Below, in pieces: positions 15,149 through 33,511 of a stretch of 50,978 bases of DNA. The first letter of the stretch is position 1. Each line of letters begins with the position of its first letter. The stretch spans positions 1 to 50,978 of the forward strand of contig CAMOZC010000001.1 of NCBI GenBank assembly GCA_946630785.1, read 5' to 3'. Source of the stretch: an uncultured Clostridia bacterium. Lineage in GTDB: Bacteria > Bacillota > Clostridia > Christensenellales > UBA1242. The position numbers and the translations under genes are program-made. The notes below the pieces were generated by a model, which was given only the letters and a program-made list of their open reading frames with translations, was not told where the DNA came from and did not search any database.

Positions 15149-15154
15149 TTGTAC

Positions 15155-16717
15155 ATGAATTTTATTGAAGAAGGTTTAGTACAAGCTCAAGCACGCGGAC
15201 AAGATATTATTTTACGTTATCCGCCAGAACCAAATGGCTACCTACATATTGGTCACGCCAAGGCTTTTAGTATCTCTTATAGTATGCGTTGTAAATACAA
15301 TGGCAAAGCTAATTTACGTTTTGATGATACTAACCCAGCCAAAGAAAGTATGGAATATGTTGAAAGTCAAAAACGTGATTTGGATTGGCTGGGAATTAAA
15401 TATGACCAAATCGTTTTTGCCAGTGACTATTATGAGAAATTATATCAATGTGCTGTGCATTTGATTAAGCGCGGTTTGGCTTATGTTGATGATAGTTCTA
15501 TGGAGGAAGTCAAGGCGATGCGTGGTGAATTAGGAGTACCTGGTAAAGAAAGCCCATATCGTAATCGCACCGTAGAAGAAAATCTGGATTTATTTGCGCG
15601 TATGCGTGCAGGTGAATTCCCAGACGGCAGTCGTGTTTTGCGTGCCAAAATTGATATGGCTTCACCAAATATGAATATGCGTGACCCAGTTTTGTATCGT
15701 ATTACACGTCAAACACATTATCGTACTGGTAATCAATGGGTCATTTATCCGATGTATGATTTTGCGCACAGTTTGAGTGACTATATTGAACATATTAGTA
15801 ACAGTTTGTGTAGTTTGGAATACGAAGACCATCGTCCGTTGTATCATTGGTGTATTGATCAGTGCCGTGATGCGTTGCCAAACTTACCTAAGATTCCACC
15901 AGAACAATATGAGTTTTCACGTTTAAATATTGAACGTTTTGTCATGAGTAAACGTTGGTTAAAGCGTTTCGTGGATGAAGGAATTGTTAGTGGTTGGGAT
16001 GATCCGCGTATGCCAACAATTTCGGGTATGCGCCGTCGTGGATATCCAGCGAAAGCAATTTTGGATTTTGTTGAATCCACTGGTGTGACGAAAAACGTGA
16101 TGACGGTTCCGTTGTCGGCTTTGGAATATTACATTCGTACCGAGTTAGACCAACAAGCCGTGCGTGTGGCTGTAGTTGAAAATCCAATTAAAGTTAAAAT
16201 TGTTAATTATGACAAAGTGGAAACTTTTGCCGTAACCAATAATCCACACGATGAAACCGCTGGTACACATCCAATTAGTTTCTCTAATGAAATTTGGATT
16301 GATGGCGATGATTACAGCGATAATCCTCCGGCTAAATACAAACGTTTGGTAATTGGTGGAGTAGTACAGTTGCGCGGTGCTTATAGAATTAAATGTTTAC
16401 GCAAGGTTGGTGATGTTTTAGAGTGTGAAATTACTGATGAAAAAGCCAAAGGTGTGATTCAATATGTTGATGCTCGTGAGGCGGTTCCGGTAACAATTCG
16501 CACTTTTGAACCATTATTGAAAGTTGGTACTGATTTAAATGATGAAAACATTAACCGTGATTCAATTCATGAAAGTCATGGTTTTGCGGAAAAATGGTTA
16601 ACTGACCGTAACGACGTGTCAACAAAATACCAATTTGTGCGTAAAGGTTATTATGTACTGGATCACAAAGATGGTTTAGTCTTTAATAAAACAATTGGTC
16701 TTAAGGAGGGATTCTAA
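15155..16717 (+). CDS. glnS: Glutaminyl-tRNA synthetase
   Basis: Class I HIGH motif (YLHIGHAKA) and a KMSKS-like VMSKR. Colinear with GlnRS. The TTG at 15149 was rejected because it directly abuts the -10 box. Confidence 0.9.
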   Translation: MNFIEEGLVQAQARGQDIILRYPPEPNGYLHIGHAKAFSISYSMRCKYNGKANLRFDDTNPAKESMEYVESQKRDLDWLGIKYDQIVFASDYYEKLYQCAVHLIKRGLAYVDDSSMEEVKAMRGELGVPGKESPYRNRTVEENLDLFARMRAGEFPDGSRVLRAKIDMASPNMNMRDPVLYRITRQTHYRTGNQWVIYPMYDFAHSLSDYIEHISNSLCSLEYEDHRPLYHWCIDQCRDALPNLPKIPPEQYEFSRLNIERFVMSKRWLKRFVDEGIVSGWDDPRMPTISGMRRRGYPAKAILDFVESTGVTKNVMTVPLSALEYYIRTELDQQAVRVAVVENPIKVKIVNYDKVETFAVTNNPHDETAGTHPISFSNEIWIDGDDYSDNPPAKYKRLVIGGVVQLRGAYRIKCLRKVGDVLECEITDEKAKGVIQYVDAREAVPVTIRTFEPLLKVGTDLNDENINRDSIHESHGFAEKWLTDRNDVSTKYQFVRKGYYVLDHKDGLVFNKTIGLKEGF

Positions 16718-17304: not shown

Positions 17305-18042
17305 ATGTCTTGGGAACTTGTTTATTGGATTTCTGGTATCGCGTTTTTGCCAATCTTAATTTTTGCGGTAATCGCTTCAATCAGAGTTACTACTGTAATT
17401 GAACATTATCATCATGTTAGGGGAAGTGGAAATTTAACTGCCCGTGAATTGGTACAGAAAATTGCCGGAGAAAAACAATTGAACATCGGTTTAGAAATGG
17501 CGTCGGAACAGGCTGGCGACCATTACGATCCACACGATAAAACGGTACGCTTAACAGCAAAGGTAATGAATAGCAGTTCAATTTCTGCGTTGGCGATTGC
17601 GGCTCATGAATGTGGACATGCTTTGCAGGATGCAGAAAATTATGCGCCCTTAAGAATGCGTAATTTAGTAATCCGTGTAAGTAATTTTTCTAGTCGCTTA
17701 TTAACACCATTAATTATTATTAGTTTGGTCGCATCATTGTTTACCTTTGGTATGGCAGCCGAAATATATTTTAAATGGATGTTATTGGGTTTCTGTGTGA
17801 TTTATGGATTAAGTGCGGTAGCGAGTTTCGCAACCTTGCCAACAGAATTCGATGCTTCGCGTCGTGGTAAGGCAATGCTGGAACAGATGCAGATAATTGA
17901 AAACCACGAAGATCAAGTAGCGGTTAATCAAGTTTTACGCGCGGCGGCGAATACTTATGTTGTTGCATTTGCTTTGTCGGTGGTATACTTTTTACGTTAT
18001 TTATCATATTTTATGATTTTATTTGGTCGCGGAAGAGATTAA
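17305..18042 (+). CDS. YugP-like membrane zinc metallopeptidase (Zn_peptidase_2)
   Basis: HExxH motif (AAHECGHALQ), N-terminal TM helix and C-terminal TM helices. Confidence 0.75.
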   Translation: MSWELVYWISGIAFLPILIFAVIASIRVTTVIEHYHHVRGSGNLTARELVQKIAGEKQLNIGLEMASEQAGDHYDPHDKTVRLTAKVMNSSSISALAIAAHECGHALQDAENYAPLRMRNLVIRVSNFSSRLLTPLIIISLVASLFTFGMAAEIYFKWMLLGFCVIYGLSAVASFATLPTEFDASRRGKAMLEQMQIIENHEDQVAVNQVLRAAANTYVVAFALSVVYFLRYLSYFMILFGRGRD

Positions 18043-18057: not shown

Positions 18058-18975
18058 ATGAAAATTGGAATTGTTGGATTGCCTAATGTCGGTAAAAGTA
18101 CGTTGTTTAATGCCATTACTAAAGCTGGAGCGGAAGTTGCAAACTATCCGTTCTGTACGATTGAGCCTAATATCGGAATTGTTCCAGTACCAGATCCTCG
18201 TGTGGATTTTTTGGCTGAACATTATCATGCCAAATCTGTCATTCATTCTACGGTTAAATTTGTGGATATTGCTGGCTTGGTAAAAGGTGCTTCGCAAGGC
18301 GAGGGTTTGGGAAATAAATTCTTATCGCATATTCGCGAGGTCGATGCGATTGTGCATGTTGTGCGTGCTTTTGATGATCCTAATGTAACTCATGTGGCTG
18401 GTGGTGCTAATCCGGAAAACGATATTGATACAATTAAATTAGAATTGGAATATGCTGGAATTGATAAACCGGTGATTTATGTTGCGAATTATAATGAAAG
18501 TGATATTGCTGACGATGGTGCTAATAACCCACATTTTCAAAAAATTAAAGCCATCGCCGCGGCTGACCATGCTCAAGTGATTGGAATTTGTGCTCAAGTA
18601 GAAAACGAATTGGCGGCTTTGCAAAATGATGAAGAACGTGCGGAATTTATGCAAATGTATGGTTTAAAACAAAGTGGACTGGATCGTTTGGTTGTGGCTG
18701 GTTATGGCCTATTAGGTTTGATTTCGTATTTAACAGCTGGGGAACCAGAAGTTCGTGCTTGGACAATTAAAAAAGGTGATACTGCATTGATTGCGGCCGG
18801 TAAAATTCATACCGATTTTATGCGTGGTTTCATTAAAGCTGAGGTTGTGTCGTATGATGATTTTGTTAAATATGGTGATTTGTTGAATGCTAAAGAACAC
18901 GGTCGTGTGCGTCAAGAGGGGCGCGATTATATCGTACAAGACGGTGACATTATTCATTTCAAATTTAATGTTTAA
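18058..18975 (+). CDS. ychF: Ribosome-binding ATPase YchF, 305 aa, lacking the helical insertion domain
   Basis: [33 protein letters not shown]-domain ending [11 protein letters not shown]. About 58 aa are absent compared with my recalled E. coli YchF. Confidence 0.92.
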
Positions 18976-18992: not shown

Positions 18993-19022
18993 TTGGTAAA
19001 TTTTGCATTCATGGTTTAAAAT
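18993..19022 (+). promoter_or_regulatory. Promoter of the T4SS-like module, leaderless configuration
   Basis: TTGGTA (18993-18998), 18 nt, TAAAAT (19017-19022), 6 nt, ATG (19029). Confidence 0.6.
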
Positions 19023-19028
19023 CAAAGT

Positions 19029-22000
19029 ATGTATTGGGGATATTCATTATTAAAAGTGTGGGATGAAGTTTTTGAGCCACTTTTGTCAGGACTTGCGTAC
19101 ACGGTTTGGAGTGCAATCCCCAAATTCCTTTATACAATTTGGAAATTAATTGCTTGGGTTGTGTCTCAGATTGAAGGTATTTTTAAAAACCTGGCTGGCC
19201 TTGGTGGTGAAAACACTGACATGGTTACTTCAATTATTAATCATCCTGCAGTTCGACAAATTTTTGGTAATCTGGTTGGTTTTGCGACGGCGCTAATTGT
19301 TTTCTTTACGATTGTAAAAATCATTCAAGAACATTACAAAGAAAAGGATGGCGGTAATCCGTATAAGATTATTGTACGTACTTTTAAAGGTTTGTTAATG
19401 TTCTTTTTTGTTCAAGGTGCCGTGACGATTGGATTGGTTGCATCACAAACTATTTTCAGAGCTTTGGATGCTGCTACTGGTACTGGTTCAATGTCAATTG
19501 CTGGACAGGTTTTTAAAGCCATGGCTGCAGATGCAAATCGTAGAAATTCACCACGTTCAGATGGAACTCCGGTTTCGGCTGCGATGAATGAATATTGGGA
19601 TCGGGTTAACAATCAAAGCACCGATAAAGGCAATTATTTTGTAGTGCAAATGACAGGTAATAATAAAGCAAAAACCAGTCAAGCATTGAAAACGAAATAT
19701 GTAGAGTCATTCCCGATTTTGCGTTATGGTGTTGTTAATCAAGATGGTACCGTGACACCAGCCACCAGTTTGTTAAATACTTTTGCCAATGAAAAAGGAA
19801 ATAGAGATAGGGATGAGTACTGGGATCGTGTTGGAGAAGATTTGAGTGGGTTCTATACTACGGTCGGCAGTAGTAGTACGTCATGGTATAACGAAAGTGG
19901 TAGTGTCGCTGGTTCTGTTGGTTTTAAAAGTGATCTTTTACAAGGTATTAATTTAACAGTAACACCGACTATCAGTTTAACTTGGTCGCCAATTGATATT
20001 ACAGATTACGAATATGCTTTGAAATTGGATAGTAAAGTAGAATCAGACGTTGATGTGAAGGTTATGGGTAATGGTGTATTGATTAAAATGGGCATGCAGT
20101 ATGTCAAATACGCTTTAATATCTAAAACTCAAAAATCGCTGGAAGATAGTGCTAAGGTTTTTGGTATATCAATTAACGGTGGTGTAGGTTTACAGGGCGG
20201 TCAAGCGTCAGCAAGTTTTAGTATTGATACACCTTTTGATGATAAATTTTTTCAAATCTTGCAAACTATTTTGGTAAACACCGTGTATACTAATGCTTTT
20301 CAAGTTATCATTGAAATGATTCCAAAATTTCCGGGAGAGTTTAATATTGCTGCAATGCAAATCAATATAGTACAAATATTGGGGCCATTGGTTGCAAGTA
20401 TATTTAAAGAATCGGCTGTTCAAACTTTTCGTATGATGAATTTGATTCCAAAAGATGAAAAAGGCAATGAATTAGTTGAAGTCATGTCGGTGCGTCCGTT
20501 TGATCACAACAGTGGTATTTGGTCAACAGTTAATGGTGGATCTAAAGATTTAACCGTTGGTATCGAACAATACCGTATTGATGGCAACTTTGGTGATTTA
20601 TGGGGTCAATTAGTTAATAATTATTTGGAATTTGTCGAAAAATTGGAATCAACTTCTGACGATTCTTACCAAAAGGCTGCTGATGCGACGGAGGAATTTG
20701 GGGGTTTGGCTAATCGTACGGCTGAACAAAGTGTTTGGTTTGATTATCAAGCGAAAGTCAATTCTTATAATGATACGGCCGCTCGATGCTTAACGAATTT
20801 GGGTAATTTACTGAGGCTTAGAGATGATGCCAATGCACAAACTACTGCCGAAGGTAGACAGGCGATTTTAGACGATAGGGGTTATAATGGTAACATTTAT
20901 GCATTAGATACAGAGATTAAAGAAAATTGGGTTACGGTTGTTAAAGATTATAACTTTTTATATAATCGTAAGCCACGTGATTGTTATGCTGATCCACGTA
21001 TTGTGGGACCAGTTTATAAACCAATCGCCGAATTTAATACTACGAACAATCGTGCGGCTGATATGGGAATTGATGAGATTAAAGCTTCATTGTTCTCTGA
21101 TCATAGTGCTTGGAGCATAGGTGGAGGATCTGGTAACCACGCGGCTGGTGATGTTAAAGTAAATTTAGTAATTGATGATACGGGGCTTTATGGTGATGAA
21201 GGTGCTTATCGCTTGGTCGACTGGGGTGTTTATGGTGATTTGTATACCATTAATCCGTTGGGCACTAACTTGACAAAATATGCAGATATCTACTGTAGTG
21301 ATGTTTGGTATGAAAGCGTAAACATTACTAAGGAACTGGAAGCAATTGACAGTAATGGACACTATAGTCTGTCAAATTCTAAATATGTTGATATGCAAAA
21401 AACCCCCGATGGTACTTGGAATAAACAAGGTGGTATTGCGTATTTTATTGATAAAGCAGGAGATGCCGGTTATGGTACTACTGCTAAAAATGATTGGTAT
21501 CAACATTCTTCTGCGTGTGATATTCTTAATAAGTTGCGTTTGAATGGTCAAGGTTTCTGGTCCGTTAAAGGTATCTACCTACCAGACGTAAAAAATGAGC
21601 CAATTTTCTACTATTACGAAGGTACTAGTCATATGCCTGGTAAGGAGTGGGGAATGACTTTTACCCATTCTGTTAATCCTTCAAGTATTCGTACGTCATC
21701 GGCAAATGCCAATATGGCATTTAATGCTGGTTTATCTAAGCAAAGTGAATTGTTTGATTTAATGACAATGGATACTTCTACAGCTAAAGCGACGGAATTT
21801 GCGAAGAATATTGTTACATTCCGTGAATTGGGAACCTCGGATGGTGATGTAAAAAAAGATAAGAAAACTTTGCAAGAATGGTTGACAACTAAGCCAGCAA
21901 CAATGCCAAATGGTGATTACAAAACTGAAATGATTTGGGAAATGTCCCCTGAAAAAATTAATGATTTAATGGCTTCAAATGGTGCTGAAGGTCGTTGTTA

Positions 22001-25000
22001 TTTATTGAAGAGCAATAATACACCATATGTAAATAAAGTTGAGGATTGGGGTGGTTATATTGGTCAATTCTCGTGGTGGGATGGCGAAACGGTTAACGCT
22101 TTGTATGATGTTCCTTCAATTAATTTTGCGGTTGGTTTTATTGCGATTATTGCAGCTGTCGGTGTTTATTTGAATTTTGCTTTCGGTTTAATTCAACGTG
22201 TGGTTAACATGGCAGTATTGTATGTAATGAGTCCGGTTACCATCGCATTCTATCCATTTGATGATGGTAAACGCTTCACGGGTAGTTTCGTTACTCCATT
22301 CTACAAAGAGGCAATTAGTGCATTTGCCGTAATTATTTCGTTGAACCTGTTTGTTGTTTTAATGCAACCAGTTGAACAAGCCGTAGCTACTGCTACTGGT
22401 GCGAAAGCTTTAGGCTGGTTAAGTTTGGTTGCTTTTGTTTCAATGCTACCGAAAATTCGTGATTCAATCACATCAATCCTGGGTGCAGGTTCGTTGTCGG
22501 AAAAGAGTTTAACTGACGCGTTTAAAGGGTTCAAAAGTTCAATGATGCCATCTGATTTGAAAAATGCTTGGGGTGCTGGTAAAAAAGGTCTTAAATCGGC
22601 GGCACATGCAAGTGCAAAGATTCGCAATGCGGTTGATGCTCATAAGGTTAAGCTACAATCTAAACGTGATAAAGAATTAAGCCACTTGAACCAATTGAAG
22701 GCAGAAAATAAATTGGGTTGGTGGGGTGAGCGCCGTCTAAATAAACTTAATGCCCAAGATTCAATGCAGAAACGAATTGATGAAGCGCGTGCATCAGGAG
22801 ATAGTTCCAAGTTGAGCAAACGTGAACGCCGTCGTTTAAAACGTCAAAATGAAGCTGCTACTCAACAAGCTAAAGCAGCTATTAAGCGTGAGGATTATAA
22901 GAGTGATGCCGAATATCAACAAGCTCTTGATGATAAGAAGAATGCCTTGTTGAATGATGCAAACTTCAAAAGATCAGTTAATGGCGTTATGGCAGCAAAA
23001 CACCGGTTCAGTAATACCGCTTTTGCGAAAAACATGAAAGCAATTGGTAATTATTGGAACAATTCGGTTATTGGTGAAATGGTTGAAGCGAAACTTGGTA
23101 TGAATGGTGAATTATCACAAAATAAAGATTCATTCTGGGGTGAAGTTCAACGTTGGCGCGACAAAGCTGCTCGTGCCGATAATATGGGCAAGATTAAGAA
23201 TGAATTCTTGGCGCGTGAAAGAAAACGATATGAGCATTTTAATGTAATGTCAGACGTTAGTGTTGAATACCGTGTCAACAAAGATAAAGCTAATTATGAA
23301 CTTGAAAAAACTGTTGATGGTTTGACTAATTCAAGATTGGCTAGTATGAGTGATAAGGATAAATATATTGCGTTAAAAACAAAAGAATGGTTAAATCAAG
23401 GTAAAGATATTAATGACGCAAAAGAACTGGCTGAAATTGATGCATATAATTTCAAAGGTAACTTCGGTGATGCGGTATCGCAGATGGGTGGTGATAAAGC
23501 ATTGTTTGACGATTTGCATGCGCAATTCGAAAGTGAATTGAATCAAAAGAAAAACCTTGGTACTGGTGGTATTGTGGCTGAGTTAAACAAAGCTAAAGAA
23601 AAACGTGAAAATGATCTGACAACGAGTGCAGAGAACCTAGGTAAACTTCTTGATAAAACAAGTACTGAAGATTTAGCCAAAATTAAAAATGTTTTGAGCC
23701 ATGCAAAGAGTTCGACGTCCTTAGATCAATTAGCCGATAAACTGGGTTCACAACTTGGTATGGATGTTGAACAGGTCAAAAATCTGACGCTTCATGATTA
23801 TAAGGATGTTCAATCTAAATTGCAGATTAATGACGATATTGAACTATTGACTGCTGCGAAAAAATCAATTGAACTTGATATCAGTGCTACTAAAGTTGTT
23901 GAAGATAAATTGGCTGGTCTTGCTTTTAATGATAAGAATGCCGTTATGACTGCGCTAAATAACGCCAATGATATGAACCTTCATTCAACCAATAAAGATT
24001 CGGTTGGTTATAAATTAAATCAAGAACTGGCAAACCATAATGGTGATGTTAATAATCCAGAATATATTAAGGCCGCTGCTAGAATCAAACAGGAGGCGAT
24101 GGATCAATGTGATGCGATTTTACGTGAAATTGCAACACGTAACGAAATGGCAATTCGTGGGCAAGATATCATTAACAAAACTACTCAGGAATTTAGTTCA
24201 ACTCGTACAATGTCTACCTATACTGGGTACATGAAACAGCGTGAAGCCATTATGAGTGATGAAATGGATCCATACGCACATAAACTCTTGGTTAACGATA
24301 GTATGATCCGTGATATGCATAGTTCAGGTAATTATGCTGGCGCGGGTGAAAAAATGAAGATGGTGGTTGAAGCCGTTCGCCGCCACGATGATGAAACTAT
24401 CAGCAAACTTGGTTTTGATCAAAAAACTGTTGAAACATTAAATGATTGGGTTAAACAAGGTTTGGACAGTCGTTTGGATGGTATTTATAAATTGGGTACC
24501 TTCGATCATTCATTCCTCAGTGATGGTAGTTATGCCATGGGTGGTGATACTTTGAATGGGGTTGCTTCAGCCATGACCAATGTTTTACGTATGGCAGAAT
24601 TGAAAAACCTTTCGGGTAAATTTGAAGTTATGGTTAAAAATCAGTCCGATATTGAAAACTCTGCACGTAATATGGTTACTCAGATTAGGTCGGAAATTGA
24701 AAGTTCAATTAACGAAAATGCAAAATGGACACAGGACTTACTCAATGGTGCATTTAAAGATGCTAGTGGAAAGGCAATTAACAACGCTGAAGAGTTGGCA
24801 GCCGCAGTTAGTGAGGCCATGAGGACCATTAATGAAGAGGGAAATGATAAAGCCAATAAGCCGTGGATTAAGGATTTATTGAATGGATTAAACAAAGCCA
24901 AGAGTGATCATGGTGATGATTACGGTGCAATTGGTGCAATCGATAATGTGTTAAAAGGCTTTGATGCCGCTAAGCGTGCGAATATCGCATTTGAAAATTC

Positions 25001-25094
25001 ACAAAATGCGCAAGCCGATAAAAACTCATATGATGCTATGTGGCGTAAAATTGTCAACGAACAAATGAAAGGGCAATCTGGCTCTGGGAAGTGA
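19029..25094 (+). CDS. Giant (2021 aa) polytopic membrane protein, VirB6/TrbL-like by topology, with a large exposed insert and a long hydrophilic C-terminal domain
   Basis: TM cluster 1 spans about aa 20-145. A mostly hydrophilic region spans about aa 150-1030. TM cluster 2 spans about aa 1031-1145 (INFAVGFIAIIAAVGVYLNFAFGLI, VVNMAVLYVMSPVTIAFYPF, AISAFAVIISLNLFVVLMQPV, LGWLSLVAFVSMLPKI). The tail of about 880 aa is rich in K/E/D/N/Q. The gene lies directly upstream of a VirB4-class ATPase. Confidence 0.6.
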   Translation: MYWGYSLLKVWDEVFEPLLSGLAYTVWSAIPKFLYTIWKLIAWVVSQIEGIFKNLAGLGGENTDMVTSIINHPAVRQIFGNLVGFATALIVFFTIVKIIQEHYKEKDGGNPYKIIVRTFKGLLMFFFVQGAVTIGLVASQTIFRALDAATGTGSMSIAGQVFKAMAADANRRNSPRSDGTPVSAAMNEYWDRVNNQSTDKGNYFVVQMTGNNKAKTSQALKTKYVESFPILRYGVVNQDGTVTPATSLLNTFANEKGNRDRDEYWDRVGEDLSGFYTTVGSSSTSWYNESGSVAGSVGFKSDLLQGINLTVTPTISLTWSPIDITDYEYALKLDSKVESDVDVKVMGNGVLIKMGMQYVKYALISKTQKSLEDSAKVFGISINGGVGLQGGQASASFSIDTPFDDKFFQILQTILVNTVYTNAFQVIIEMIPKFPGEFNIAAMQINIVQILGPLVASIFKESAVQTFRMMNLIPKDEKGNELVEVMSVRPFDHNSGIWSTVNGGSKDLTVGIEQYRIDGNFGDLWGQLVNNYLEFVEKLESTSDDSYQKAADATEEFGGLANRTAEQSVWFDYQAKVNSYNDTAARCLTNLGNLLRLRDDANAQTTAEGRQAILDDRGYNGNIYALDTEIKENWVTVVKDYNFLYNRKPRDCYADPRIVGPVYKPIAEFNTTNNRAADMGIDEIKASLFSDHSAWSIGGGSGNHAAGDVKVNLVIDDTGLYGDEGAYRLVDWGVYGDLYTINPLGTNLTKYADIYCSDVWYESVNITKELEAIDSNGHYSLSNSKYVDMQKTPDGTWNKQGGIAYFIDKAGDAGYGTTAKNDWYQHSSACDILNKLRLNGQGFWSVKGIYLPDVKNEPIFYYYEGTSHMPGKEWGMTFTHSVNPSSIRTSSANANMAFNAGLSKQSELFDLMTMDTSTAKATEFAKNIVTFRELGTSDGDVKKDKKTLQEWLTTKPATMPNGDYKTEMIWEMSPEKINDLMASNGAEGRCYLLKSNNTPYVNKVEDWGGYIGQFSWWDGETVNALYDVPSINFAVGFIAIIAAVGVYLNFAFGLIQRVVNMAVLYVMSPVTIAFYPFDDGKRFTGSFVTPFYKEAISAFAVIISLNLFVVLMQPVEQAVATATGAKALGWLSLVAFVSMLPKIRDSITSILGAGSLSEKSLTDAFKGFKSSMMPSDLKNAWGAGKKGLKSAAHASAKIRNAVDAHKVKLQSKRDKELSHLNQLKAENKLGWWGERRLNKLNAQDSMQKRIDEARASGDSSKLSKRERRRLKRQNEAATQQAKAAIKREDYKSDAEYQQALDDKKNALLNDANFKRSVNGVMAAKHRFSNTAFAKNMKAIGNYWNNSVIGEMVEAKLGMNGELSQNKDSFWGEVQRWRDKAARADNMGKIKNEFLARERKRYEHFNVMSDVSVEYRVNKDKANYELEKTVDGLTNSRLASMSDKDKYIALKTKEWLNQGKDINDAKELAEIDAYNFKGNFGDAVSQMGGDKALFDDLHAQFESELNQKKNLGTGGIVAELNKAKEKRENDLTTSAENLGKLLDKTSTEDLAKIKNVLSHAKSSTSLDQLADKLGSQLGMDVEQVKNLTLHDYKDVQSKLQINDDIELLTAAKKSIELDISATKVVEDKLAGLAFNDKNAVMTALNNANDMNLHSTNKDSVGYKLNQELANHNGDVNNPEYIKAAARIKQEAMDQCDAILREIATRNEMAIRGQDIINKTTQEFSSTRTMSTYTGYMKQREAIMSDEMDPYAHKLLVNDSMIRDMHSSGNYAGAGEKMKMVVEAVRRHDDETISKLGFDQKTVETLNDWVKQGLDSRLDGIYKLGTFDHSFLSDGSYAMGGDTLNGVASAMTNVLRMAELKNLSGKFEVMVKNQSDIENSARNMVTQIRSEIESSINENAKWTQDLLNGAFKDASGKAINNAEELAAAVSEAMRTINEEGNDKANKPWIKDLLNGLNKAKSDHGDDYGAIGAIDNVLKGFDAAKRANIAFENSQNAQADKNSYDAMWRKIVNEQMKGQSGSGK

Positions 25095-25100
25095 TAAATA

Positions 25101-27725
25101 ATGGGTGAGTATTTTATCCCGCGTAAGACCAAAATCAAGACCGTCTTCATTAAGGGGCTGACTTCTAGTGATTTAATTTGGTTGGTTTTCGGCATTGGTG
25201 CCACCGTATTATTGTTCGTTTCTCAGATGATTCCCTTGATGGTCTTGGGCGGTGTTGTTGGTTTCTTAGTTATTATTGGTATGACCAAGGACATCGCGGG
25301 CGACCGTCGTTACGAATCTTTCATTTGGTATTTTAGATTTTTGGCTTATCCGAAAAAATATGCTAAAGCACTAGAGAAGGGTTATGTTGAAATGTCGCGT
25401 TTGGCACCATATCTTGGTACTGCCGATGATAAGTTTATTGATTATGGTAATTATTTTGCGTCAGTAATTGAAATTATGCCAGTTGAATTCTGGCTTTTGG
25501 GACCAGAAGCACAAACCATGTTAATTAATAACATGGCTAATGCTTTGCGCCGTATTGGGTCGCAACATTCTGGTAGTTTAATTGCTTTTGAAAAACCAAT
25601 TTTATTTGATAATTACATTGATAATGAAATTCAAAAATATGATGAATTGGTAAAAAATGTTGACCGTGGCGTTTTTTCGCAAGAAGAATTGGAAGCGCGT
25701 GAACCAGTGTTTAGGTCCCGTGGACAAATGCTGGAATACATGAACGAAGAATCCAAGGTTTTCCGTACCAGTTATTATTTGGTTATATATGGTAGCAAGA
25801 AAGAGGAGTTGGATACCGTTACCGAAAGTGTCGTTCCAGCTTTAGGGGCATCGTTGCATGCTCATCGCTTAAAGGGAAAGGAATTATATATTTTCTTACG
25901 TGGTAATTATGGTAAAAATTTCAACGAAAAAGATTTTGACCATATGCCATTTGATAAACGTACAGAATGGACATTCCCCGATAAAATTAAATTTGGTGTT
26001 GGTAAATTTACCCAAGATAATGAACAAAAAACTACCTTTACGATTACTGACTATCCGATGAATGTTAGCAGTGCTTGGTTGTATACTTTCTTTAACTATC
26101 CAAATTGCCGTGCCGTTATGAATTTCTCACAGGTTTCCAAAGCGGAATCAGAAAAACTAATTGACCGTGCCATCATGGAAATGCGTTCGCAAGAGGCTAG
26201 CAAGGGTAAGGAAAGTCAAAAAATGGAAAAAGAAAGCCAATTGCAAACGATTGAACAAATGTTACAACAGTTAAAAACTGGTAATGAACAAATGTTCAAT
26301 GTTAATATCCATTTGACGACAGATACTAAAACAGCCATCGAATTACGTAATACTATTATTGAAGAGGGCTTTAGGTTTACCAACAATACAGGTAAACAAA
26401 TTGATGCTTTTGTATCAGCTAACGTTTCACGTTTGGATAAATATGATAATGTTGAGCGTGGTATGGTTACCAGTACATTAGGGGCCAGTTTCCCATTCGT
26501 TTCAGATTTGTTAATGGATGACAAAGGAATTATGTTGGGAAGTAACAGTAACCCTGTGTTTGTGGATTTCTTCCAGCGTAATGATGTACGTGTTAATAGT
26601 AACATGATTATTATCGGTAAATCCGGTGGTGGTAAATCCTTTGCGACAAAATCAATCCTGACACATTTGGCGGCAGACAATACGCGTATTTATATTTGTG
26701 ACCCTGAAAAAGAATATTCAACCATGGCAAAAAATTTGCATGGTGGTATGATTGACGTTGGTAATGCGGGGCGTGGGCGTTTCAATCCTTTCCATATTTA
26801 TCCAAACATGTTGGATGAAGATGATGAAACCGGGGAAGAGTATGATGACACATTTGAAAGTCATTTGCGTTTCTTGGAAAGTTTCTTCAAAATTGTTATG
26901 GAAGGTATCCGTTCTGATGCATTGGAAGCGTTGAACGGCTTGGTTAACCGCTTGTATAGCATGAAAGGCATTGACCGCTATACTGACTTTGCTAAATTAA
27001 GACCAGAACAATTCCCAGTTTTTGATGAGTTGTATGAATTGGCAAAACGTAGTTACGCGCAATCTAAGGATGAATTCTCGCGTGTTAACTATCGTGTTTT
27101 GACAACTTATTTGGAAAAGTTTGCTGAAGGTGGCCGTTATTCTGGTTTGTGGAATGGACCAAATACCATTCGTACAGAAGAAAACTTCTTCGTGTTTAAC
27201 TTCTTAACATTGTTGTCTAACAAAAACGAATTGGTTGCTAACGCGCAGATGTTGTTGGTATTTAAATACCTGGAAGGTGAGGTTATTAAAAATCGTGAGT
27301 ATAACCAGAAATACCACACCAAACGTAAAATTATTATTGTCGTTGATGAGGCGCACGTCTTTATTGATGAAAAACGTCCGGTTGCGTTGGACTTTATGTT
27401 CCAAATGGCAAAACGTATTCGTAAGTATGACGGTATGCAAATCGTTATTACACAAAATATTAAGGACTTTGTGGGTTCGCCAGCAATTGCAAAAAAATCC
27501 GCCGCGATTATCAACGCGTCACAATATAGTTTGATTTTCTCGTTAGCACCAAACGATATGACCGACTTGGTAACGTTGTACAAAAACGCTGGTGGTATCA
27601 ACAAAAGCGAACAACAAACCATTGTTGCCGCTCCACGTGGTCAATGTTTCTTTATGTATGGACCAGTGGCGCGCTCAACTATTCGCATTGAAACCAGTAA
27701 CGATATTCGCAGCGTGTTTGAGTAA
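25101..27725 (+). CDS. virB4: VirB4/TraE/TrsE-class T4SS ATPase with a fused N-terminal VirB3/PrgI-like TM hairpin
   Basis: Two N-terminal TM helices (aa ~24-62). Walker A IIGKSGGGKS (nt 26616), DPEKEY (nt 26700), FNPF, Walker B IIVVDEAH (D at nt 27345), IVITQNIKDF. The Walker A sits at about aa 506 of 874, as in VirB4 proteins. Confidence 0.8.
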   Translation: MGEYFIPRKTKIKTVFIKGLTSSDLIWLVFGIGATVLLFVSQMIPLMVLGGVVGFLVIIGMTKDIAGDRRYESFIWYFRFLAYPKKYAKALEKGYVEMSRLAPYLGTADDKFIDYGNYFASVIEIMPVEFWLLGPEAQTMLINNMANALRRIGSQHSGSLIAFEKPILFDNYIDNEIQKYDELVKNVDRGVFSQEELEAREPVFRSRGQMLEYMNEESKVFRTSYYLVIYGSKKEELDTVTESVVPALGASLHAHRLKGKELYIFLRGNYGKNFNEKDFDHMPFDKRTEWTFPDKIKFGVGKFTQDNEQKTTFTITDYPMNVSSAWLYTFFNYPNCRAVMNFSQVSKAESEKLIDRAIMEMRSQEASKGKESQKMEKESQLQTIEQMLQQLKTGNEQMFNVNIHLTTDTKTAIELRNTIIEEGFRFTNNTGKQIDAFVSANVSRLDKYDNVERGMVTSTLGASFPFVSDLLMDDKGIMLGSNSNPVFVDFFQRNDVRVNSNMIIIGKSGGGKSFATKSILTHLAADNTRIYICDPEKEYSTMAKNLHGGMIDVGNAGRGRFNPFHIYPNMLDEDDETGEEYDDTFESHLRFLESFFKIVMEGIRSDALEALNGLVNRLYSMKGIDRYTDFAKLRPEQFPVFDELYELAKRSYAQSKDEFSRVNYRVLTTYLEKFAEGGRYSGLWNGPNTIRTEENFFVFNFLTLLSNKNELVANAQMLLVFKYLEGEVIKNREYNQKYHTKRKIIIVVDEAHVFIDEKRPVALDFMFQMAKRIRKYDGMQIVITQNIKDFVGSPAIAKKSAAIINASQYSLIFSLAPNDMTDLVTLYKNAGGINKSEQQTIVAAPRGQCFFMYGPVARSTIRIETSNDIRSVFE

Positions 27726-27743
27726 AACATTTGTTGTGAAGAT

Positions 27744-27771
27744 AAAGCCCGGATTGCGCGGGCTTTTTTTA
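27744..27771 (+). terminator. Rho-independent terminator ending the T4SS-like module
   Basis: aaagcccg / cgggcttt hairpin with a 7-nt loop and T7. Confidence 0.85.
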
Positions 27772-27850: not shown

Positions 27851-28231
27851 ATGGAATTAAAAAATAAATTAAAACATTTTGTTACTAATGGGATGAAACT
27901 TAAGATGAACAAGAAGCATGCTAAGCCGGTGGATTTGAACCAGCTTGCGCGGATTGATTTTCCAGAATTAGCAGACTTTGACTTGCAGTCATACGTTAAT
28001 GCACATGATGATTTTGCATTCCAAGTAATGGTCAACCTTTTGAACAGTGCCAACAAAAAACGTGAAAATATTTATGTTGAAAGTTTTGACCATAAGGCGT
28101 TGCCGGTAAAATTTTATTCCGCCGATAAGGCAACATTGGATAATGTTTATCAGACGGTCTTTGAGAAGTCAAGAGCGGAATACTTTGGTAAAAATCAAGA
28201 ACAACAAAACGATAGTGGAATAACAATGTAA
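27851..28231 (+). CDS. Hypothetical 126-aa soluble protein, monocistronic
   Basis: Own promoter (TTGATT 27790-27795, 18 nt, TGaTAAAAT 27811-27819), SD AAGGAG, and terminators on both sides. No TM segment and no recognised motif. Confidence 0.55.
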   Translation: MELKNKLKHFVTNGMKLKMNKKHAKPVDLNQLARIDFPELADFDLQSYVNAHDDFAFQVMVNLLNSANKKRENIYVESFDHKALPVKFYSADKATLDNVYQTVFEKSRAEYFGKNQEQQNDSGITM

Positions 28232-28233
28232 TA

Positions 28234-28260
28234 AAAAGCCCGCAAATCGCGGGTTTTTTA
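28234..28260. terminator. Bidirectional rho-independent terminator (126-aa gene and ntp operon end)
   Basis: cccgc / gcggg stem extended by A/T pairs, with an A-run and a T-run on the two sides. Confidence 0.8.
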
Positions 28261-28890
28261 TTCGGCGTTGTTTTGCATGTCTTTGATTTTCATGACGCGG
28301 ATTTGCGTTTCGCGTTGGTTTTCGTCCAGTTTCATAGTAATGAATTTAATCTTGGCTTGAATATCCGGAATCATGTTGTATTCCAAACTGTTGATGCGGC
28401 GACGGACTTTTTGGATTTCGTCGGCCAGCATGCTGCAAGTTTTTTCAATGTTGGCCAGTTCAATCATGGTCGCTGTTAATTGTTGGAGTAAGCGAATGGA
28501 TTCGTCGAAAGCAACTGGTGTTGTTAATAAAATTTTTTCCTTGGGGTGGTCGGTGTCGGCAATCTCAATGTGGGGTACAGTTAGTCCCATGATGTTTTGT
28601 GTTGAACAACTAAATGCCAGCGAATGGTGGCGCGCTGACAGGGCGGCATCAACCGCGGCAGTGGACATGTGAGTATTGGCAGCGACGAATAAGCGCAAAG
28701 CATGGTTGAGTTTTTTTTCAACCAATTCACGTAGATTGCGGTTTTTTTGAATTAGTTCAGCAAACTTGTGCACCATTTCGTCATATTTATCTTCCAACAA
28801 TTTGTGTGCACGCCGTGCTGTTTTTAGGCGGTCGTTTTGACGTAACCGCTCCATGCGTGTGGCATTAATATTAGTCGTAGTTGGTGTCAT
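28258..28890 (-). CDS. ntpD: V-type ATPase subunit D
   Basis: NATRMERLR...[18 protein letters not shown] is a typical V/A-ATPase D N-terminus. Last gene of the operon. Confidence 0.88.
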
Positions 28891-30256
28891 CTTCGTAATA
28901 TTTATCCAAAATGGCTTTGTTAATACGGGTTAGTTCGACTTTTGGTAACAAGCGTAGTAATGACCAACCCAAGTCCAAAGTTTCAGCAATCGTGCGGTTA
29001 GTATTGAAACCTTGGTTGATAAATTGATTTTCGAATTCTGTCGCAAATTTACAATACAGCTGGTCGGTTGCGGACAGTGCGGATTCACCCAGAATCTGTG
29101 CTAACTCTTTACTATCTTTACCTTTGGCGTAACAGGCGAAGAGTTGGTTTAAAACTCCTTTGTGGTCCTCACGGGTTTTACCTTTACCGATACCTTTGTC
29201 TTTTAAACGAGATAAAGAAGGTAAAACGTCAATCGGTGGTGTAATTCCTTTTTTATAAAGGTCACGCGAAATAACAATTTGCCCTTCGGTAATGTAACCG
29301 GTTAAGTCTGGAATGGGGTGGGTTTTGTCATCTTCAGGCATGGTTAAAATTGGAATTTGCGTAATGGAACCTTTACAACCTTTAATGCAACCTGCACGTT
29401 CGTAAAGTGAGGCCAAGTCGGTATACAAATAACCTGGATAACCGCGACGTCCTGGAATCTCTTTACGGGCAGCCGAAACTTCGCGTAGTGCTTCGGCGTA
29501 ATTGGTCATATCGGTTGTAATTACCAGAACATGGTAATCCAGTTCAAAGGCTAAATACTCAGCCACGGTTAATGCGACACGTGGGGTAGCGATACGTTCC
29601 AGCGCTGGGTCGTTGGCTAAATTGATGAACATGACCGAACGCGAAAGTGCACCCGTTTCGGCAAATGAATTCATGAAGTAAGCCGCCTCATCATAGGTGA
29701 TACCAATCGCCGCGAAGACAATGGCAAATTTACTATCACTGTTGGGTACTGTGGCTTGACGGGCGATTTGCGCGGCTAATTCAGCATGTGGCATACCTGA
29801 CATAGAAAAGATGGGAAGTTTTTGTCCACGCACTAAGGTGTTTAAACCATCAATACTGGAAATACCGGTTTGAATAAAATCTTGTGGATAGTCGCGTGCC
29901 GTGGGGTTAATTGGTGCTCCGTTAATGTCTAATTTTTTGGTGGCGATTAGGGGCGCGGCACCGTCTTTCGGACGGCCCAAACCATCAAAGACACGACCCA
30001 AAATATTTGGTGCCACGGCAACTTCTAAACCGTGTCCAGTGAATTTGACCGCATTATCGTGAATACCTAAACCTTGTCCAGCGGTAAACATTTGCACAAT
30101 GGCTTTATCGTCGAGGACTTCCAAAACTTTACCATAACGAACAGTACCGTCATCGGCTTTGATTTCCACAAACTCATTGTAGGTTACACCTTCGGTGTTG
30201 GTAACGACTAACAAAGGTCCGACAGCACTTTGAATGGTCTTGTAATATTTGTTCAT
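28871..30256 (-). CDS. ntpB: V-type ATPase subunit B
   Basis: 461 aa, colinear with the V/A-type B subunit ([23 protein letters not shown]). Confidence 0.95.
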
Positions 30257-31992
30257 GCCAATTTACCTCCTAATTCATATTTAATGCGGTTAGTCAGTTC
30301 GGAAATTTTTTCCGCTTGGTCGTTTGGAATGTAACGGAATTGTGCAAATTCTTCGCGTACCGTTGGCAAAATAATTTGCTCGTAAGGAATGCCTTTACGC
30401 ACAGCGGCATCCGCCAGATTGTAATAAGTCATCATCGCTTCCAACATTAAAAATTGTTTTTTCGGGGCAGCGTAAGTATCAACTTCGCTCATCGCGTCTT
30501 GCATCAAATAATTTTCACGTAAAAGCGTGGCAGTGCTTAAAATCAGGCGGTCACCGTCAGATAAAGAATCTTCACCAACCAAACGCACGATTTCTTCTAA
30601 GTTAGCGGATAATTGTAAAATCTTCATGGCTCCTTGGCGATATTTAACATAATCGGGTGAAATGTTGTCGCGGTACCAATTTTCTAATTGGTCGGCGTAT
30701 AAAGAGTATGATGTGAGCCAGTCAATCGCGGGGAAGTGACGGCGGTAAGCCAAAGCAGCAGAGAGACCCCAGAAAACTTTGACAATACGCAAGGTGGCTT
30801 GCGAGACGGGCTCGCTTAAATCCCCACCGGGCGGCGAAACTGCACCAATGGCAGTGATGGAACCAAGTTGTGATTCGGAACCGAGAACTTGAACACGTCC
30901 CGCGCGTTCGTAAAATTCTGCGATACGACTGCTTAAATAAGCAGGGTAGCCTTCTTCGCCTGGTAGTTCTTCCAAACGTCCACTCATCTCACGTAATGCT
31001 TCTGCCCAACGACTAGTACTATCTGCCATAATAGCTACGTCATAGCCCATATCGCGGAAATATTCCGCAATGGTAATGCCTGTGTAGATGCTGGCTTCGC
31101 GAGCAGCAACCGGCATATCACTGGTGTTAGCAATTAAGATTGTACGTTTCATTAATGGTTCGCCAGTTTTGACATCAACCAATTCTGGGAATTCATTTAG
31201 AACGTCGGTCATTTCGTTACCACGTTCGCCACAGCCAATGTAGACAACGACTTGTGCATCTGACCATTTGGCAATTTGGTGTTGGCATACGGTCTTACCA
31301 GAACCAAAAGGACCAGGAATAGCGGCAACACCACCTTTAGCAATTGGGAATAAAGTATCAATGGTACGTTGTCCTGTGATTAATGGGACACTAGTTGCCA
31401 ATTTGCGACGAATTGGACGGGCTTGGCGCACTGGCCATTTTTGTAGCATTTGTACTGGTTTACCATCAATTTCGGCAATTGTATCAGTAATGGTATAACT
31501 ACCAGAATTGATTTTGGTGATTTTTCCTTGGATACCAAAAGGTACCATGATGCGGTGTTCAATAACGGTGGTTTCTTGTACTGTACCCAGCACATCACCA
31601 GCCGTTACCGTGTCACCAACTTTTTTGGTTGCTTTAAAATCCCATTTAGTTGAGCGATTTAATTTATCAACGGAAATTCCGGTAGTAATGCGGTTACCAA
31701 CTAGTTCACGAATATCTGCCAAAGGACGGCCAATTCCGTCAAAGATGCCAGACATAATACCAGGGGCTAATTCCATGCAAAGCGGGGCATTGGTGTTGAT
31801 AACAGGGTCACCAACTTTTATTCCGCTGGTTTCTTCATAAACTTGGATACTAGCATGGTCACCACGTAATTCAATAACTTCGCCAATTAATTTAGCATCA
31901 CCAACATAAACAACGTCATGCAAATTAGCACTATCAAGATTGGCGGCAACAACTAATGGTCCACTGATTTTGATGATTTTTCCTTGATTCAT
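30253..31992 (-). CDS. ntpA: V-type ATPase catalytic subunit A
   Basis: Walker A GPFGSGKT, non-homologous insert region, [10 protein letters not shown]. 4-nt overlap with ntpB. Confidence 0.96.
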
Positions 31993-32318
31993 AAATTTCC
32001 TCCTAGTTTGATTCCCATTGCTTTTTCAAAATTTTGGTTTAATCGCTGCATGCCGTAATGACTGTGTGTCACTGTGTCTGGAATGGGCATAATGATGGGG
32101 TAAGGGATTCCCGCGCGACTATCGAGATATTTACCAATTTGGGCTGCGGTTTTTTCCAAAATTAAAATAATTTTATAACCCGCAGTTTCCAATGTTTGGC
32201 AACGATGAATGACGGCCTCGGGTTCAGTGTCATAGTAACAATCATAACCAATCGCTCTGAAAACTTTAACAATCGCTTGTTCGCCAATAACGGCAATCGC
32301 TTTATTGGAATTGTTCAT
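31989..32318 (-). CDS. ntpG: V-type ATPase subunit F (NtpG in E. hirae nomenclature)
   Basis: IAVIGEQAIVKVFRAIG pattern, about 109 aa, position between the C and A subunits. Confidence 0.8.
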   Translation of the reverse strand: MNNSNKAIAVIGEQAIVKVFRAIGYDCYYDTEPEAVIHRCQTLETAGYKIILILEKTAAQIGKYLDSRAGIPYPIIMPIPDTVTHSHYGMQRLNQNFEKAMGIKLGGNL

Positions 32319-32976
32319 ACAGCCCCCTTAAATTTTCACGCAACCAAGTAACATCGTAATTAAAACGCTTGCTGATTAAAATGGCTTTAATAATGATGAG
32401 TTCTTTTTCGCGTTGTAAATACCACCAGAAAAGTGGGTTTGGCTTGAAGATGTCATCTTTGTCAACTTCACCCAAAGCCTCTAAACGTTCTTGAATTAAA
32501 TCTTCGCGTTGTTCGGCGCTGGAATGGGGAAAGATATCTAATTGGTTAGCTTGTAAACTTCCCCCCGGAAAGACGATATCACTCCCTTTGTAGAAATTGC
32601 GAACGTTGATTAGGTCAACCCATGTTGTTAAATACTCACGGATTGATGCGGTTTTTACCAACGGAATTTGTGTGGAAAGAATGGCAAAAATTGATTGGGT
32701 ATTATTTTCGTTAAGTTGACTCATCGCTTGCACGCAAGCGAGAAGTGCCGAATCCTCGCAGAGGTCTTTAAAGATGGTTAAAGTCTGTTGGTGTGCAGCA
32801 TCTAGTAATTCATCATCGTCCGTAAAGTTGGTTTGGTAGCCACATTCTTGCAAAATGGTTAAACAGTCTTCACGGGTATTAGCGGTGGCCATGTCACGAA
32901 TGCGTTTGCGTGTTAAAAGATGGGCATCGCCCTGCATGATAATGCTCGCATTCGCAAAAGTTATGCCACCTGCCAT
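32302..32976 (-). CDS. ntpC: V-type ATPase subunit C (d-like), short 224-aa form
   Basis: Operon position between E and F, and helical composition. Shorter than the ~320-330 aa usual for this subunit. Confidence 0.65.
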   Translation of the reverse strand: MAGGITFANASIIMQGDAHLLTRKRIRDMATANTREDCLTILQECGYQTNFTDDDELLDAAHQQTLTIFKDLCEDSALLACVQAMSQLNENNTQSIFAILSTQIPLVKTASIREYLTTWVDLINVRNFYKGSDIVFPGGSLQANQLDIFPHSSAEQREDLIQERLEALGEVDKDDIFKPNPLFWWYLQREKELIIIKAILISKRFNYDVTWLRENLRGLYEQFQ

Positions 32977-32977
32977 C

Positions 32978-33511
32978 TTATAAAACTCCTAATATTTCTG
33001 CGACGGTTGGCGCCAGTGGTTCACGCAATTCTGCTAAAATGTTATCAATGCCCAACTCTAAACGATAGGTTTGGTTTTCAATGATAATACCACCGTTAAT
33101 TGCTGTTGTGGTTGGTAGTTCAGGGAAAGCATGCGCCCAGTTTTTAGCGATTAAAATTTTATCACCGGGTTTAGCGTATTTTTTGGTATATGCATCAACA
33201 ATAGTTTGAATTTCTTGTTTGGATGCGTTTAATAATTTTTCGCGTGCCGTGGTGAAGGCTTGTTCAATCCAGTCTTGTTGTGCGTTGATTTGCGCTTTGA
33301 TACAAGACACTTCGTGTGCGCGCTCTTGTTGTGTTTTACGATATTCAAGACTGTCTTGACCCTGTTTTAGGGCAAGTTTTTTACGTTCATCGGCTTGGGC
33401 TTGTGCTGCTGCAATTTGTTCAGACGCACGTTTTTCCGCAGCCGAAATCAAGTTGTTGGCTTGTTGTTTAGCATTACGTAAAATTTTTTTGGTTAAATCT
33501 TGTTCAGTCAT
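32978..33511 (-). CDS. ntpE: V-type ATPase subunit E
   Basis: N-terminal long charged helix (ILRNAKQQANNLISAAEKRASEQIAAAQAQA) plus a globular C-terminus. Operon position fits. Confidence 0.8.
   Translation of the reverse strand: MTEQDLTKKILRNAKQQANNLISAAEKRASEQIAAAQAQADERKKLALKQGQDSLEYRKTQQERAHEVSCIKAQINAQQDWIEQAFTTAREKLLNASKQEIQTIVDAYTKKYAKPGDKILIAKNWAHAFPELPTTTAINGGIIIENQTYRLELGIDNILAELREPLAPTVAEILGVL

Follow-up and report, generated by a model that had tools for sequence, protein, structure and literature searches.

A giant VirB6-like protein and a VirB4 ATPase as probable parts of a dispersed, chromosomal type IV secretion system in uncultured gut Clostridia

The closest described relatives of the system considered here are found in very different settings. 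The minimal type IV secretion system (T4SS) of mycoplasma integrative and conjugative elements (ICEs) includes CDS5 (VirD4), CDS16 (VirB6-like), and CDS17 (VirB4/TraE) (PMC12857230). Patescibacteria encode a chromosomal T4SS that lacks a relaxase and is essential in Ca. Southlakia epibionticum (PMC12102498), and the VirB6-family proteins of the Rickettsiales rvh system carry very large hydrophilic extensions, reaching up to 4322 aa in Anaplasma VirB6-4 (PMC7648143, PMC2653234). Here, we analyze two adjacent genes, one for a giant VirB6-like membrane protein and one for a VirB4-family ATPase, in a 50,978-nt stretch of DNA from an uncultured Clostridia bacterium (GenBank assembly GCA_946630785.1, contig CAMOZC010000001.1, positions 1 to 50,978), hereafter the window. 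T4SS genes in Firmicutes are usually taken as markers of plasmids or ICEs, whereas VirB4, VirB6, and VirD4 appear here to belong to the stable chromosome of a whole gut lineage, the abundant uncultured Clostridia of the rumen and hindgut. No published description of this system was found in the Christensenellales or Christensenella literature.

The two genes likely supply one half, channel plus ATPase, of a minimal T4SS that is fixed in the chromosome, inherited vertically, and dispersed over at least two housekeeping-flanked loci. In the best-supported reading, the predicted system resembles the kind found in Mollicutes ICEs and in mating-pair formation type FATA (MPF-FATA). The open reading frames (ORFs) are co-directional on the forward strand, at positions 19029 to 25094 (2021 aa, the giant) and 25101 to 27725 (874 aa, the ATPase), with a gap of 6 nt, and the VirB4 gene is probably translationally coupled to the giant gene upstream. 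An earlier interpretation of the window, made from the sequence alone (the original prediction), had proposed an orphan two-gene module; its ORF coordinates, 6-nt spacing, flanking ychF gene and V-ATPase operon, and ATPase motifs were all recovered. Relatives were drawn from a scan of species-representative genomes, and their loci are denoted by L-numbers. The VirB4 was found in approximately 14 metagenome-assembled genomes (MAGs) that carry the label "Clostridia bacterium" (uncultured) and come from guts, including those of ruminants, and the relatives are labeled Christensenellales or Christensenella.

The 874-aa protein (25101 to 27725, forward strand) is a genuine full-length VirB4, VirB4-like in both its N- and C-terminal domains and with intact catalytic motifs. 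It marginally passes the NCBIfam model NF045975 VirB4_plasma, the Mbov_0397 ICE ATPase family, over aa 12 to 871 (590.4 bits versus a cut-off of 590), and scores under the cut-offs of the other VirB4/TraC models in the NCBIfam scan. When a profile of 43 homologs was compared to the PDB, it matched 4AG5, the VirB4 of Thermoanaerobacter pseudethanolicus (E 1.3e-63); Pfam P-loop_TraG matched the protein at 1.7e-24. The C-terminal P-loop ATPase domain (aa 474 to 868; 26520 to 27704, forward strand) carries the Walker A motif GKSGGGKS (aa 506 to 513), DPEKEY (534 to 539), NPF (562 to 564), the Walker B motif VVDEAH (747 to 752), and ITQNIKDF (783 to 790), the key residues of which, including G506 to S513 and D749 to H752, are invariant in the 43 homologs. 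The AlphaFold2 (AF2) model, with a predicted local distance difference test score (pLDDT) of 81.6, was best matched in Foldseek by TrwK/VirB4 of R388 (E 8e-22, 846 to 868 columns, TM-score 0.53 to 0.58). HerA (5e-8 to 2e-4) and FtsK (0.02) were far behind TrwK/VirB4 in the same comparison, and a HerA/FtsK identity was rejected; the VirB4 identity originally proposed is thus upheld by both structure comparison and profiles. The closest plasmid-borne VirB4s are those of Spiroplasma and Mycoplasma elements.

The original prediction had also called the ATPase a VirB3/VirB4 fusion. PrgI is the Gram-positive VirB3, and the N-terminus of the ATPase (aa ∼1 to 85; 25101 to 25355, forward strand) does form a two-helix membrane hairpin according to hydropathy and the AF2 helices at aa 22 to 40 and 44 to 60. 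Its similarity to VirB3/PrgI is weak and far under the cut-offs (Pfam PrgI, E 0.049; DUF3487, 0.029). The VirB4 part of the proposed fusion stands, and a fused VirB3/PrgI-like anchor is possible.

The giant protein (2021 aa; 19029 to 25094, forward strand) was assigned from its orthologs and from NCBIfam matches. Approximately 40 orthologs are available, 36 to 45% identical and of a constant length of 2000 to 2185 aa and with both ORFs of the pair intact. Among ∼32 full-length orthologs, conservation peaks twice, at aa 51 to 150 and 1001 to 1150, and both peaks are hydrophobic. The former falls in an N-terminal membrane block with ∼3 transmembrane helices, the putative first half of the core (aa 1 to 204; 19029 to 19640, forward strand). 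The latter is a central membrane block, again with ∼3 transmembrane helices and the putative second half (aa 1001 to 1150; 22029 to 22478, forward strand); it is the most conserved part of the protein, with 81% column identity at aa 1051 to 1100. Hydropathy and AF2 helices give ∼3 + 3 transmembrane helices flanking aa 147 to 1030, which agrees with the five or more helices and large extracytoplasmic loop of VirB6/TrbL proteins. Residues 1001 to 1137 matched three conjugation membrane-protein families of Mollicutes and Firmicutes, each under its curated cut-off: NF045848 (MMCAP2_0566; 6e-19, 68.5 bits versus 90), NF045889 (Mbov_0396; 1e-9, 38.4 bits versus 70), and pLS20_p028 (3e-4). Matches to MMCAP2_0566 (best 4.6e-34) and Mbov_0396 (best 1.6e-21) were obtained for 15/15 members of the giant family. 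With the blocks scanned separately, the Pfam profile TrbL_4 matched aa 40 to 130 at profile positions 12 to 105 (E 9e-4) and, in the fragment spanning aa 1001 to 1200, approximately aa 1023 to 1122 at positions 135 to 232 (E 3e-3); both weak matches are under the gathering score, and they are colinear in the giant.

A more compact form of the same protein is present in a distant relative, L023, where a 745-aa VirB6-like protein encoded directly upstream of VirB4 scores above both NCBIfam cut-offs and can be aligned with each of the two blocks, which are only ∼30 to 70 residues apart there; the N-terminal block (aa 1 to 204) is homologous to its aa 42 to 228. Because the two blocks match the families colinearly and align to this 745-aa protein, the giant is identified, at the level of sequence, as a probable extended VirB6 whose predicted six-helix TrbL/Mbov_0396-type core is split between helices 3 and 4, in support of the VirB6-like assignment made originally. 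The AF2 model of aa 1 to 1200 is mediocre, with many domains, a pLDDT of 65, and a predicted template modeling score (pTM) of 0.38. A Foldseek search with this low-confidence model returned no PDB match to a solved VirB6 (TrwI of R388) at E <0.2, and the giant model gave nothing under E 0.02 in the PDB and BFVD, viral structures included. In an exhaustive search with the central block, which yielded 631 cluster representatives, approximately 85/631 matched at E 1.8e-21 or better, comprising 81 proteins of 1079 to 2391 aa and four shorter, probably partial ones, and only after a gap in scores did ordinary forms follow, mostly of 600 to 960 aa (E 5e-12 or worse).

The core halves are separated by an inserted ectodomain of ∼800 aa (aa 205 to 1000; 19641 to 22028, forward strand), delimited from AF2 secondary structure and pLDDT. 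It is modeled as beta-rich modules, a long helical hairpin stalk (aa 521 to 644), and a mixed alpha/beta head; AF2 is confident for the hairpin and mostly confident for the head at aa 660 to 870. The central block is followed by a C-terminal tail of ∼870 aa (22479 to 25094, forward strand) that is K/E-rich in composition, predicted to be cytoplasmic, and low in conservation (17 to 42%). Under the positive-inside rule, the charge distribution predicts an N-in, loop-out, tail-in topology, which would place the ectodomain outside the cell and the tail inside. Neither region, scanned in isolation, matched anything in Pfam even at E 10. Both are homologous only within the genus-level clade, with no homology to the giants located beside VirB4 or VirD4 in L021, L023, L024, L025, and L027. 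The tail is weakly similar to helical-repeat proteins, and a PDB profile search with it returned only helical-bundle noise.

Within the ectodomain head, comparison of the window to L028, a contig of the same species, revealed a hypervariable cassette (aa 602 to 903; 20832 to 21737, forward strand). Synonymous divergence (dS) reaches 1.45 and nonsynonymous divergence (dN) 0.43 in the cassette, versus a background dS of 0.04 to 0.12, and aa 701 to 810 are only 55% identical, versus 98 to 100% in the flanks. Divergence of this order within a species, amid near-identical flanks, indicates that recombination has exchanged alleles of the predicted head. The cassette is the least conserved stretch of the ectodomain between species as well. 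A donor was sought among 31 orthologs and none was found.

Wherever a locus has enough flanking sequence, in approximately 12 species-level MAGs, ychF is followed by the giant gene and VirB4, and the adjacency of giant and VirB4 is conserved in all relatives. Of the synteny extending from ychF to the V-ATPase operon (ntp), the upstream part is conserved across these species, and the V-ATPase operon lies downstream in some of them only. Across species, VirB4 is 83 to 90% identical to the window protein, within the range of its housekeeping neighbors, whereas the giant is 31 to 45% identical at a nearly constant length. A deeper context is provided by L021 and L024, in which VirB4 is 56 to 57% identical and the gene order is glyceraldehyde-3-phosphate dehydrogenase (GAPDH), giant (1520 or 1611 aa), VirB4, V-ATPase operon, and P-type ATPase; these giants have the same split-core build as that of the window. 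Between the window and L028, housekeeping genes have a dS of 0.06 to 0.12 and a dN/dS ratio (ω) of <0.07, and VirB4 has a dS of 0.036, one change in 874 aa, and an ω of ∼0. VirB4 is under strong purifying selection and evolves like a housekeeping gene. The G+C content of the module (0.37 to 0.39) is the same as that of its flanks, and its composition is thus not anomalous. From synteny, selection, and the intact ORFs, the pair is a fixed chromosomal feature rather than a decaying ICE.

In more distant relatives (L023, L017, and L018), a VirD4 gene and a gene resembling Mbov_0395 and T4SS pilins stand beside virB6-virB4. The arrangement in L023 is contiguous (VirD4, the pilin-like gene, VirB6, and VirB4) and adjoins fructose-bisphosphate (FBP) aldolase and GAPDH genes, neighbors also seen in L021 and L024. 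An alignment of these distant VirD4s matched a contig of a MAG belonging to the window clade (JAZSQY01), and the matching protein served as the next query. All clade assemblies with a VirB4 (14/14) proved to encode VirD4 as well, each time on a different contig and at 87 to 96% identity. The protein has the Pfam domain T4SS-DNA_transf (8.6e-50) along with TrwB_AAD_bind and TraG-D_C, and belongs to the clostridial NCBIfam family CD1115 (285 bits versus a cut-off of 250). Its locus (L117, 272 to 17959, both strands; also L109 to L126) is conserved in context: one strand carries Ppx/GppA, a PNP-family phosphorylase, VirD4, and a gene of ∼2630 aa (giant-2), and the opposite strand a flippase and membrane-anchored proteins of 140, 173, and 905 aa. 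The claim that the module is an orphan with no coupling protein thus fails, since VirD4 is conserved at a second housekeeping-flanked locus in the relatives; further T4SS genes exist there away from the pair, albeit not as a complete set. More generally, calling a T4SS "orphan" from a single contig is unsafe because the partner ATPase can be encoded elsewhere. Mean pairwise identities over nine species are 0.88 for VirB4, 0.90 for VirD4, 0.94 for YchF, and 0.88 for Ppx, and the pairwise values of the four proteins are positively correlated (r 0.5 to 0.84), the pattern expected if all four descend vertically together.

Giant-2 is 45 to 58% identical between species; it begins with a signal-like helix, continues as an acidic body rich in G, S, T, and N, and ends in a membrane anchor. 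Neither giant-2 nor the 905-aa neighbor of VirD4 had a match in Pfam, NCBIfam, or the PDB. The small bitopic proteins of the locus are likewise without a family match and could be unrecognized VirB8-like parts. Two MAGs labeled "Prevotella sp." (JAMPCO01, with L005 and L115, and CAZXAV01, with L008 and L114) show full synteny with, and 86 to 89% protein identity to, the Clostridia MAGs at both loci; these labels are evidently wrong.

Other components and mobility genes were sought at both loci. The 51-kb window contains no relaxase, VirD4, integrase, or transposase gene, and no direct repeats flank the module, as the original prediction had reported; it also has no pilin gene and no tRNA gene. 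No pilin-like gene was detected in the window, L001 to L012, L021, or L024 with a hidden Markov model built from the L023, L017, and L018 proteins; the small Mbov_0395-type pilin-like or VirB3-like gene that might be expected upstream of the giant was not found in the clade. A VirB1-type hydrolase was found neither in either giant nor among the neighbors at either locus, no VirB8-like protein was recognized at either locus, and no relaxase or oriT was found within ∼10 kb of either.

Several points weigh against a dispersed minimal T4SS. Hydrolase, VirB8-like protein, pilin, and relaxase all went undetected at the two loci; the giant of the window scores under the curated VirB6-like cut-offs, and the poor model of its first 1200 residues matched no solved VirB6. 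The presence of VirD4 in the window's own organism is extrapolated from 14 relatives, which are MAGs and hence dependent on binning. What the comparisons above establish is the identity, fixation, and selection regime of the parts and the existence of a VirD4 partner in relatives; topology, surface exposure, partner contact, the channel and adhesin roles, and joint action of the two loci are inferences.

One alternative is that VirB4 and VirB6 alone make up a two-gene translocon needing no coupling protein, for example a DNA importer like Helicobacter ComB or archaeal Ced. The operon, with a promoter and a terminator of its own, does contain no T4SS genes but these two, no further T4SS gene lies inside the 51 kb, and a faint similarity to CedD appeared in the NCBIfam scan of the window proteins; in Patescibacteria, the distal t4cp gene is reported to be non-essential and the other T4SS genes essential (PMC12102498). 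We nevertheless consider it improbable: VirD4 is present in every clade genome with housekeeping-rate conservation and a divergence that tracks that of VirB4, its gene is contiguous with virB6-virB4 in L023, and a search for Ced- or ComB-type pilins found none. Quite improbable, too, is that the machine is a T4SS derivative for envelope biogenesis, exporting, inserting, or anchoring the cell's own giant surface proteins (candidates being giant-2, the 905-aa protein, and a 1526-aa ORF in the window) instead of mediating transfer between cells. Giant surface-type proteins adjoin VirB4 or VirD4 in many relatives, and the three candidates share a signal-like N-terminus, a huge ectodomain, and a C-terminal transmembrane anchor. 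Those N-terminal helices, however, suggest Sec-dependent export; the hypervariable head on VirB6 itself points to an external partner; and we know of no T4SS with a role in envelope biogenesis.

The family assignments could also be taken to mean that the pair is what remains of a Mollicutes-type ICE, two genes kept by chance during its decay, given that the closest curated families are the ICE genes Mbov_0396 and Mbov_0397 and the closest plasmid VirB4s belong to Mollicutes elements. This is extremely improbable and is effectively refuted, because the same context is kept across all species sampled and in the deeper clade and because VirB4 is conserved under strong purifying selection; both ORFs are intact in ∼40 orthologs of constant length, and the window has a native composition with no integrase, transposase, att repeat, or tRNA.

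If the pair belongs to a dispersed minimal T4SS, as we favor, a working scheme can be proposed. VirB4 hexamers would attach to the membrane by way of both their VirB3-like hairpin and the VirB6 core, and the core would serve as the translocation channel. The stalk-and-head ectodomain could reach through the wall and touch a target cell, with the allele-variable head setting or evading specificity. VirD4, supplied from the second locus, would recruit the substrate, which may be protein or, as in mycoplasma chromosomal transfer, DNA, and giant-2 beside it may act as an adhesin. A 2000-aa, predicted surface-exposed channel subunit with a recombining head suggests that contact with other cells, serving DNA exchange or effector delivery, is routine and under selection in this lineage. 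A bolder proposal, which we regard as doubtful, is that the T4SS is an organelle that defines this clade of uncultured gut Clostridia, is possibly essential to it, and serves an obligate interaction between cells, be it epibiotic, syntrophic, or predatory contact or the routine exchange of chromosomal DNA. If true, it would parallel the essential T4SS of Saccharibacteria, and the variable VirB6 head would be a determinant of partner specificity.

The expression signals of the pair were examined next to its flanks. A promoter-like pair of hexamers (−35, TTGGTA; −10, TAAAAT) lies at 18993 to 19022 on the forward strand, and the ATG of the giant gene follows 6 nt past the −10. The match to the consensus (9/12) is at chance level, with 39 such matches found versus 36 expected in shuffled sequence. 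When the spacers between ychF and the giant gene were aligned from 12 genomes, however, three elements stayed at fixed positions (the −35-like TTGGyA, the −10-like TAAnAT, and the ATG), with variable sequence around them. No Shine-Dalgarno sequence is present in the 6 nt preceding the ATG. Because the hexamers and the ATG keep their positions and a Shine-Dalgarno sequence is missing, a real promoter producing a leaderless mRNA that starts at the giant gene is plausible; the promoter predicted originally is thus backed by positional conservation and not by its consensus match. The intrinsic terminator predicted after the VirB4 gene was confirmed, at 27744 to 27766 on the forward strand, with an 8-bp stem containing five GC pairs and a T-run, and it ends the two-gene operon. 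The next gene downstream is a 126-aa ORF, after which the minus strand carries the V-ATPase operon. The hydrophilic 126-aa ORF (27851 to 28231) has no family match and sits between near-identical terminator hairpins (27738 to 27768 and 28233 to 28263). Apart from the window, the same-species contig L028 alone has it, with other species lacking it at that site, and it looks like a small recent insertion.

The upstream flank of the giant gene is a YchF homolog (18058 to 18975) of just 305 aa that matches the 368-position model TIGR00092 in two separate regions. An internal segment of the canonical protein is apparently absent from it, and all relatives have a YchF of this length. The remaining genes of the window are housekeeping genes or without an assigned function, the former including trigger factor, ClpP/X, S12/S7/EF-G, acetate kinase, HflX, glutaminyl-tRNA synthetase (GlnRS), V-ATPase, P-type ATPase, SurE, Cmk, NusB, XseA, RecN, and CorA. 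Gene content around the module varies among species. The whole V-ATPase operon (28258 to 35985) is absent at the site in some species of the clade, where the P-type ATPase gene directly follows VirB4 (L003, L009, L010, and L014 bear on its presence or absence), and is present again in the relatives with 56 to 57% VirB4 identity. Upstream (15149 to 16717 and 17305 to 18042), the GlnRS gene is absent at the site in L010 and a Zn-peptidase gene in L006, L008, and L012.

A second very large ORF, at 46206 to 50786, is listed as 1526 aa and likely starts near 46386, because its listed 5′ end overlaps the CorA gene (45272 to 46609, minus strand). It has no Pfam or NCBIfam match. With a signal-like helix and a C-terminal membrane anchor, it is built like the 2630-aa and 905-aa proteins of the VirD4 locus, without sequence similarity to them; a direct comparison to giant-2 found no homology. 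In more distant Clostridia, VirB4s of the family stand beside other enormous unannotated genes, of at least 3855 aa (L025, 12688 to 22670), at least 2438 aa (L023, 1 to 2826), and 888 aa (L027, 13125 to 15791), among HflX, YchF, RadC, and FBP aldolase genes; none has sequence similarity to the window giant. Approximately 14 kb upstream of the module, the window also encodes a TraX-family (PF05857) membrane protein (4482 to 5246) and a BspA-type leucine-rich-repeat protein (3304 to 4404). The TraX name comes from the F-pilin acetylase, and no sign of T4SS membership was seen here.

Among described systems, the mycoplasma ICE is the nearest. Its Mbov_0395, Mbov_0396, and Mbov_0397 families include the closest curated family for both window proteins, the order of adjacent VirB6-like and VirB4 genes is the same, and a Mbov_0395-type pilin-like gene recurs in the relative L023. 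Both systems are minimal VirD4/VirB4/VirB6 sets with no recognizable VirB1 or VirB8 (PMC12857230). The genes described here differ: they are immobile chromosomal genes passed on by vertical descent, the window has neither a DDE transposase nor ICE borders, and the set is spread over two loci. Their VirB6 is a 2021-aa protein with an inserted ectodomain and a tail, their VirB4 is only 25 to 32% identical to the Mollicutes proteins, their VirD4 belongs to the clostridial CD1115 family, and the small pilin-like/VirB3-like gene was not found in the clade.

The T4SS of Patescibacteria likewise has a monoderm, MPF-FATA-related VirB4 and is chromosomal and phylogenetically coherent within its lineage; its t4cp is often far from virB4, and its presumed role lies outside plasmid conjugation (PMC12102498, PMC12857230). 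Patescibacterial clusters, however, have VirB2-like pilins, TrsD, separate VirB3/PrgI, and peptidoglycan hydrolases, none of which was seen here, and no VirB3-VirB4 fusions were found there; the present system belongs to Clostridia and has a giant VirB6. It may represent a second, independent domestication of a monoderm conjugation machine, after that of Patescibacteria, with an evolutionary link to the minimal apparatus of mycoplasma ICEs. The Rickettsiales rvh system shares the distribution of T4SS genes over several chromosomal islands and their vertical inheritance (PMC7648143, PMC2653234). It is a diderm P-type T4SS with VirB7 to VirB11 in an unrelated lineage, and its VirB6 extensions are C-terminal, whereas the main insertion in the giant is a central, putatively extracellular loop accompanied by a C-terminal tail.

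Large hydrophilic domains are also known from plasmid-encoded proteins of this type, and the extra domain of F-plasmid TraG serves mating-pair stabilization and allele-specific recognition. F TraG and TcpH of Clostridium perfringens are "extended VirB6" proteins, in which a polytopic VirB6-like core is combined with such domains in a central or C-proximal position (PMC12857230). Unlike the giant, they are plasmid-borne and of ∼830 to 940 aa, and their extra domains have no detected sequence or fold similarity to it. Type IVC, or minimized Gram-positive, T4SSs such as that of Streptococcus suis 89K share the core of VirB4, VirB6, and VirD4 (PMC3464263). Theirs is a single cluster on genomic islands or ICEs that includes a VirB1-type hydrolase (VirB1, VirB4, VirB6, and VirD4), whereas here there is no island, two loci are occupied, and neither has a detected hydrolase. 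Set beside all of these systems, the one described here is distinguished by housekeeping-grade conservation in a lineage of Clostridia, a two-locus layout, and a giant VirB6 with an apparently recombining head.

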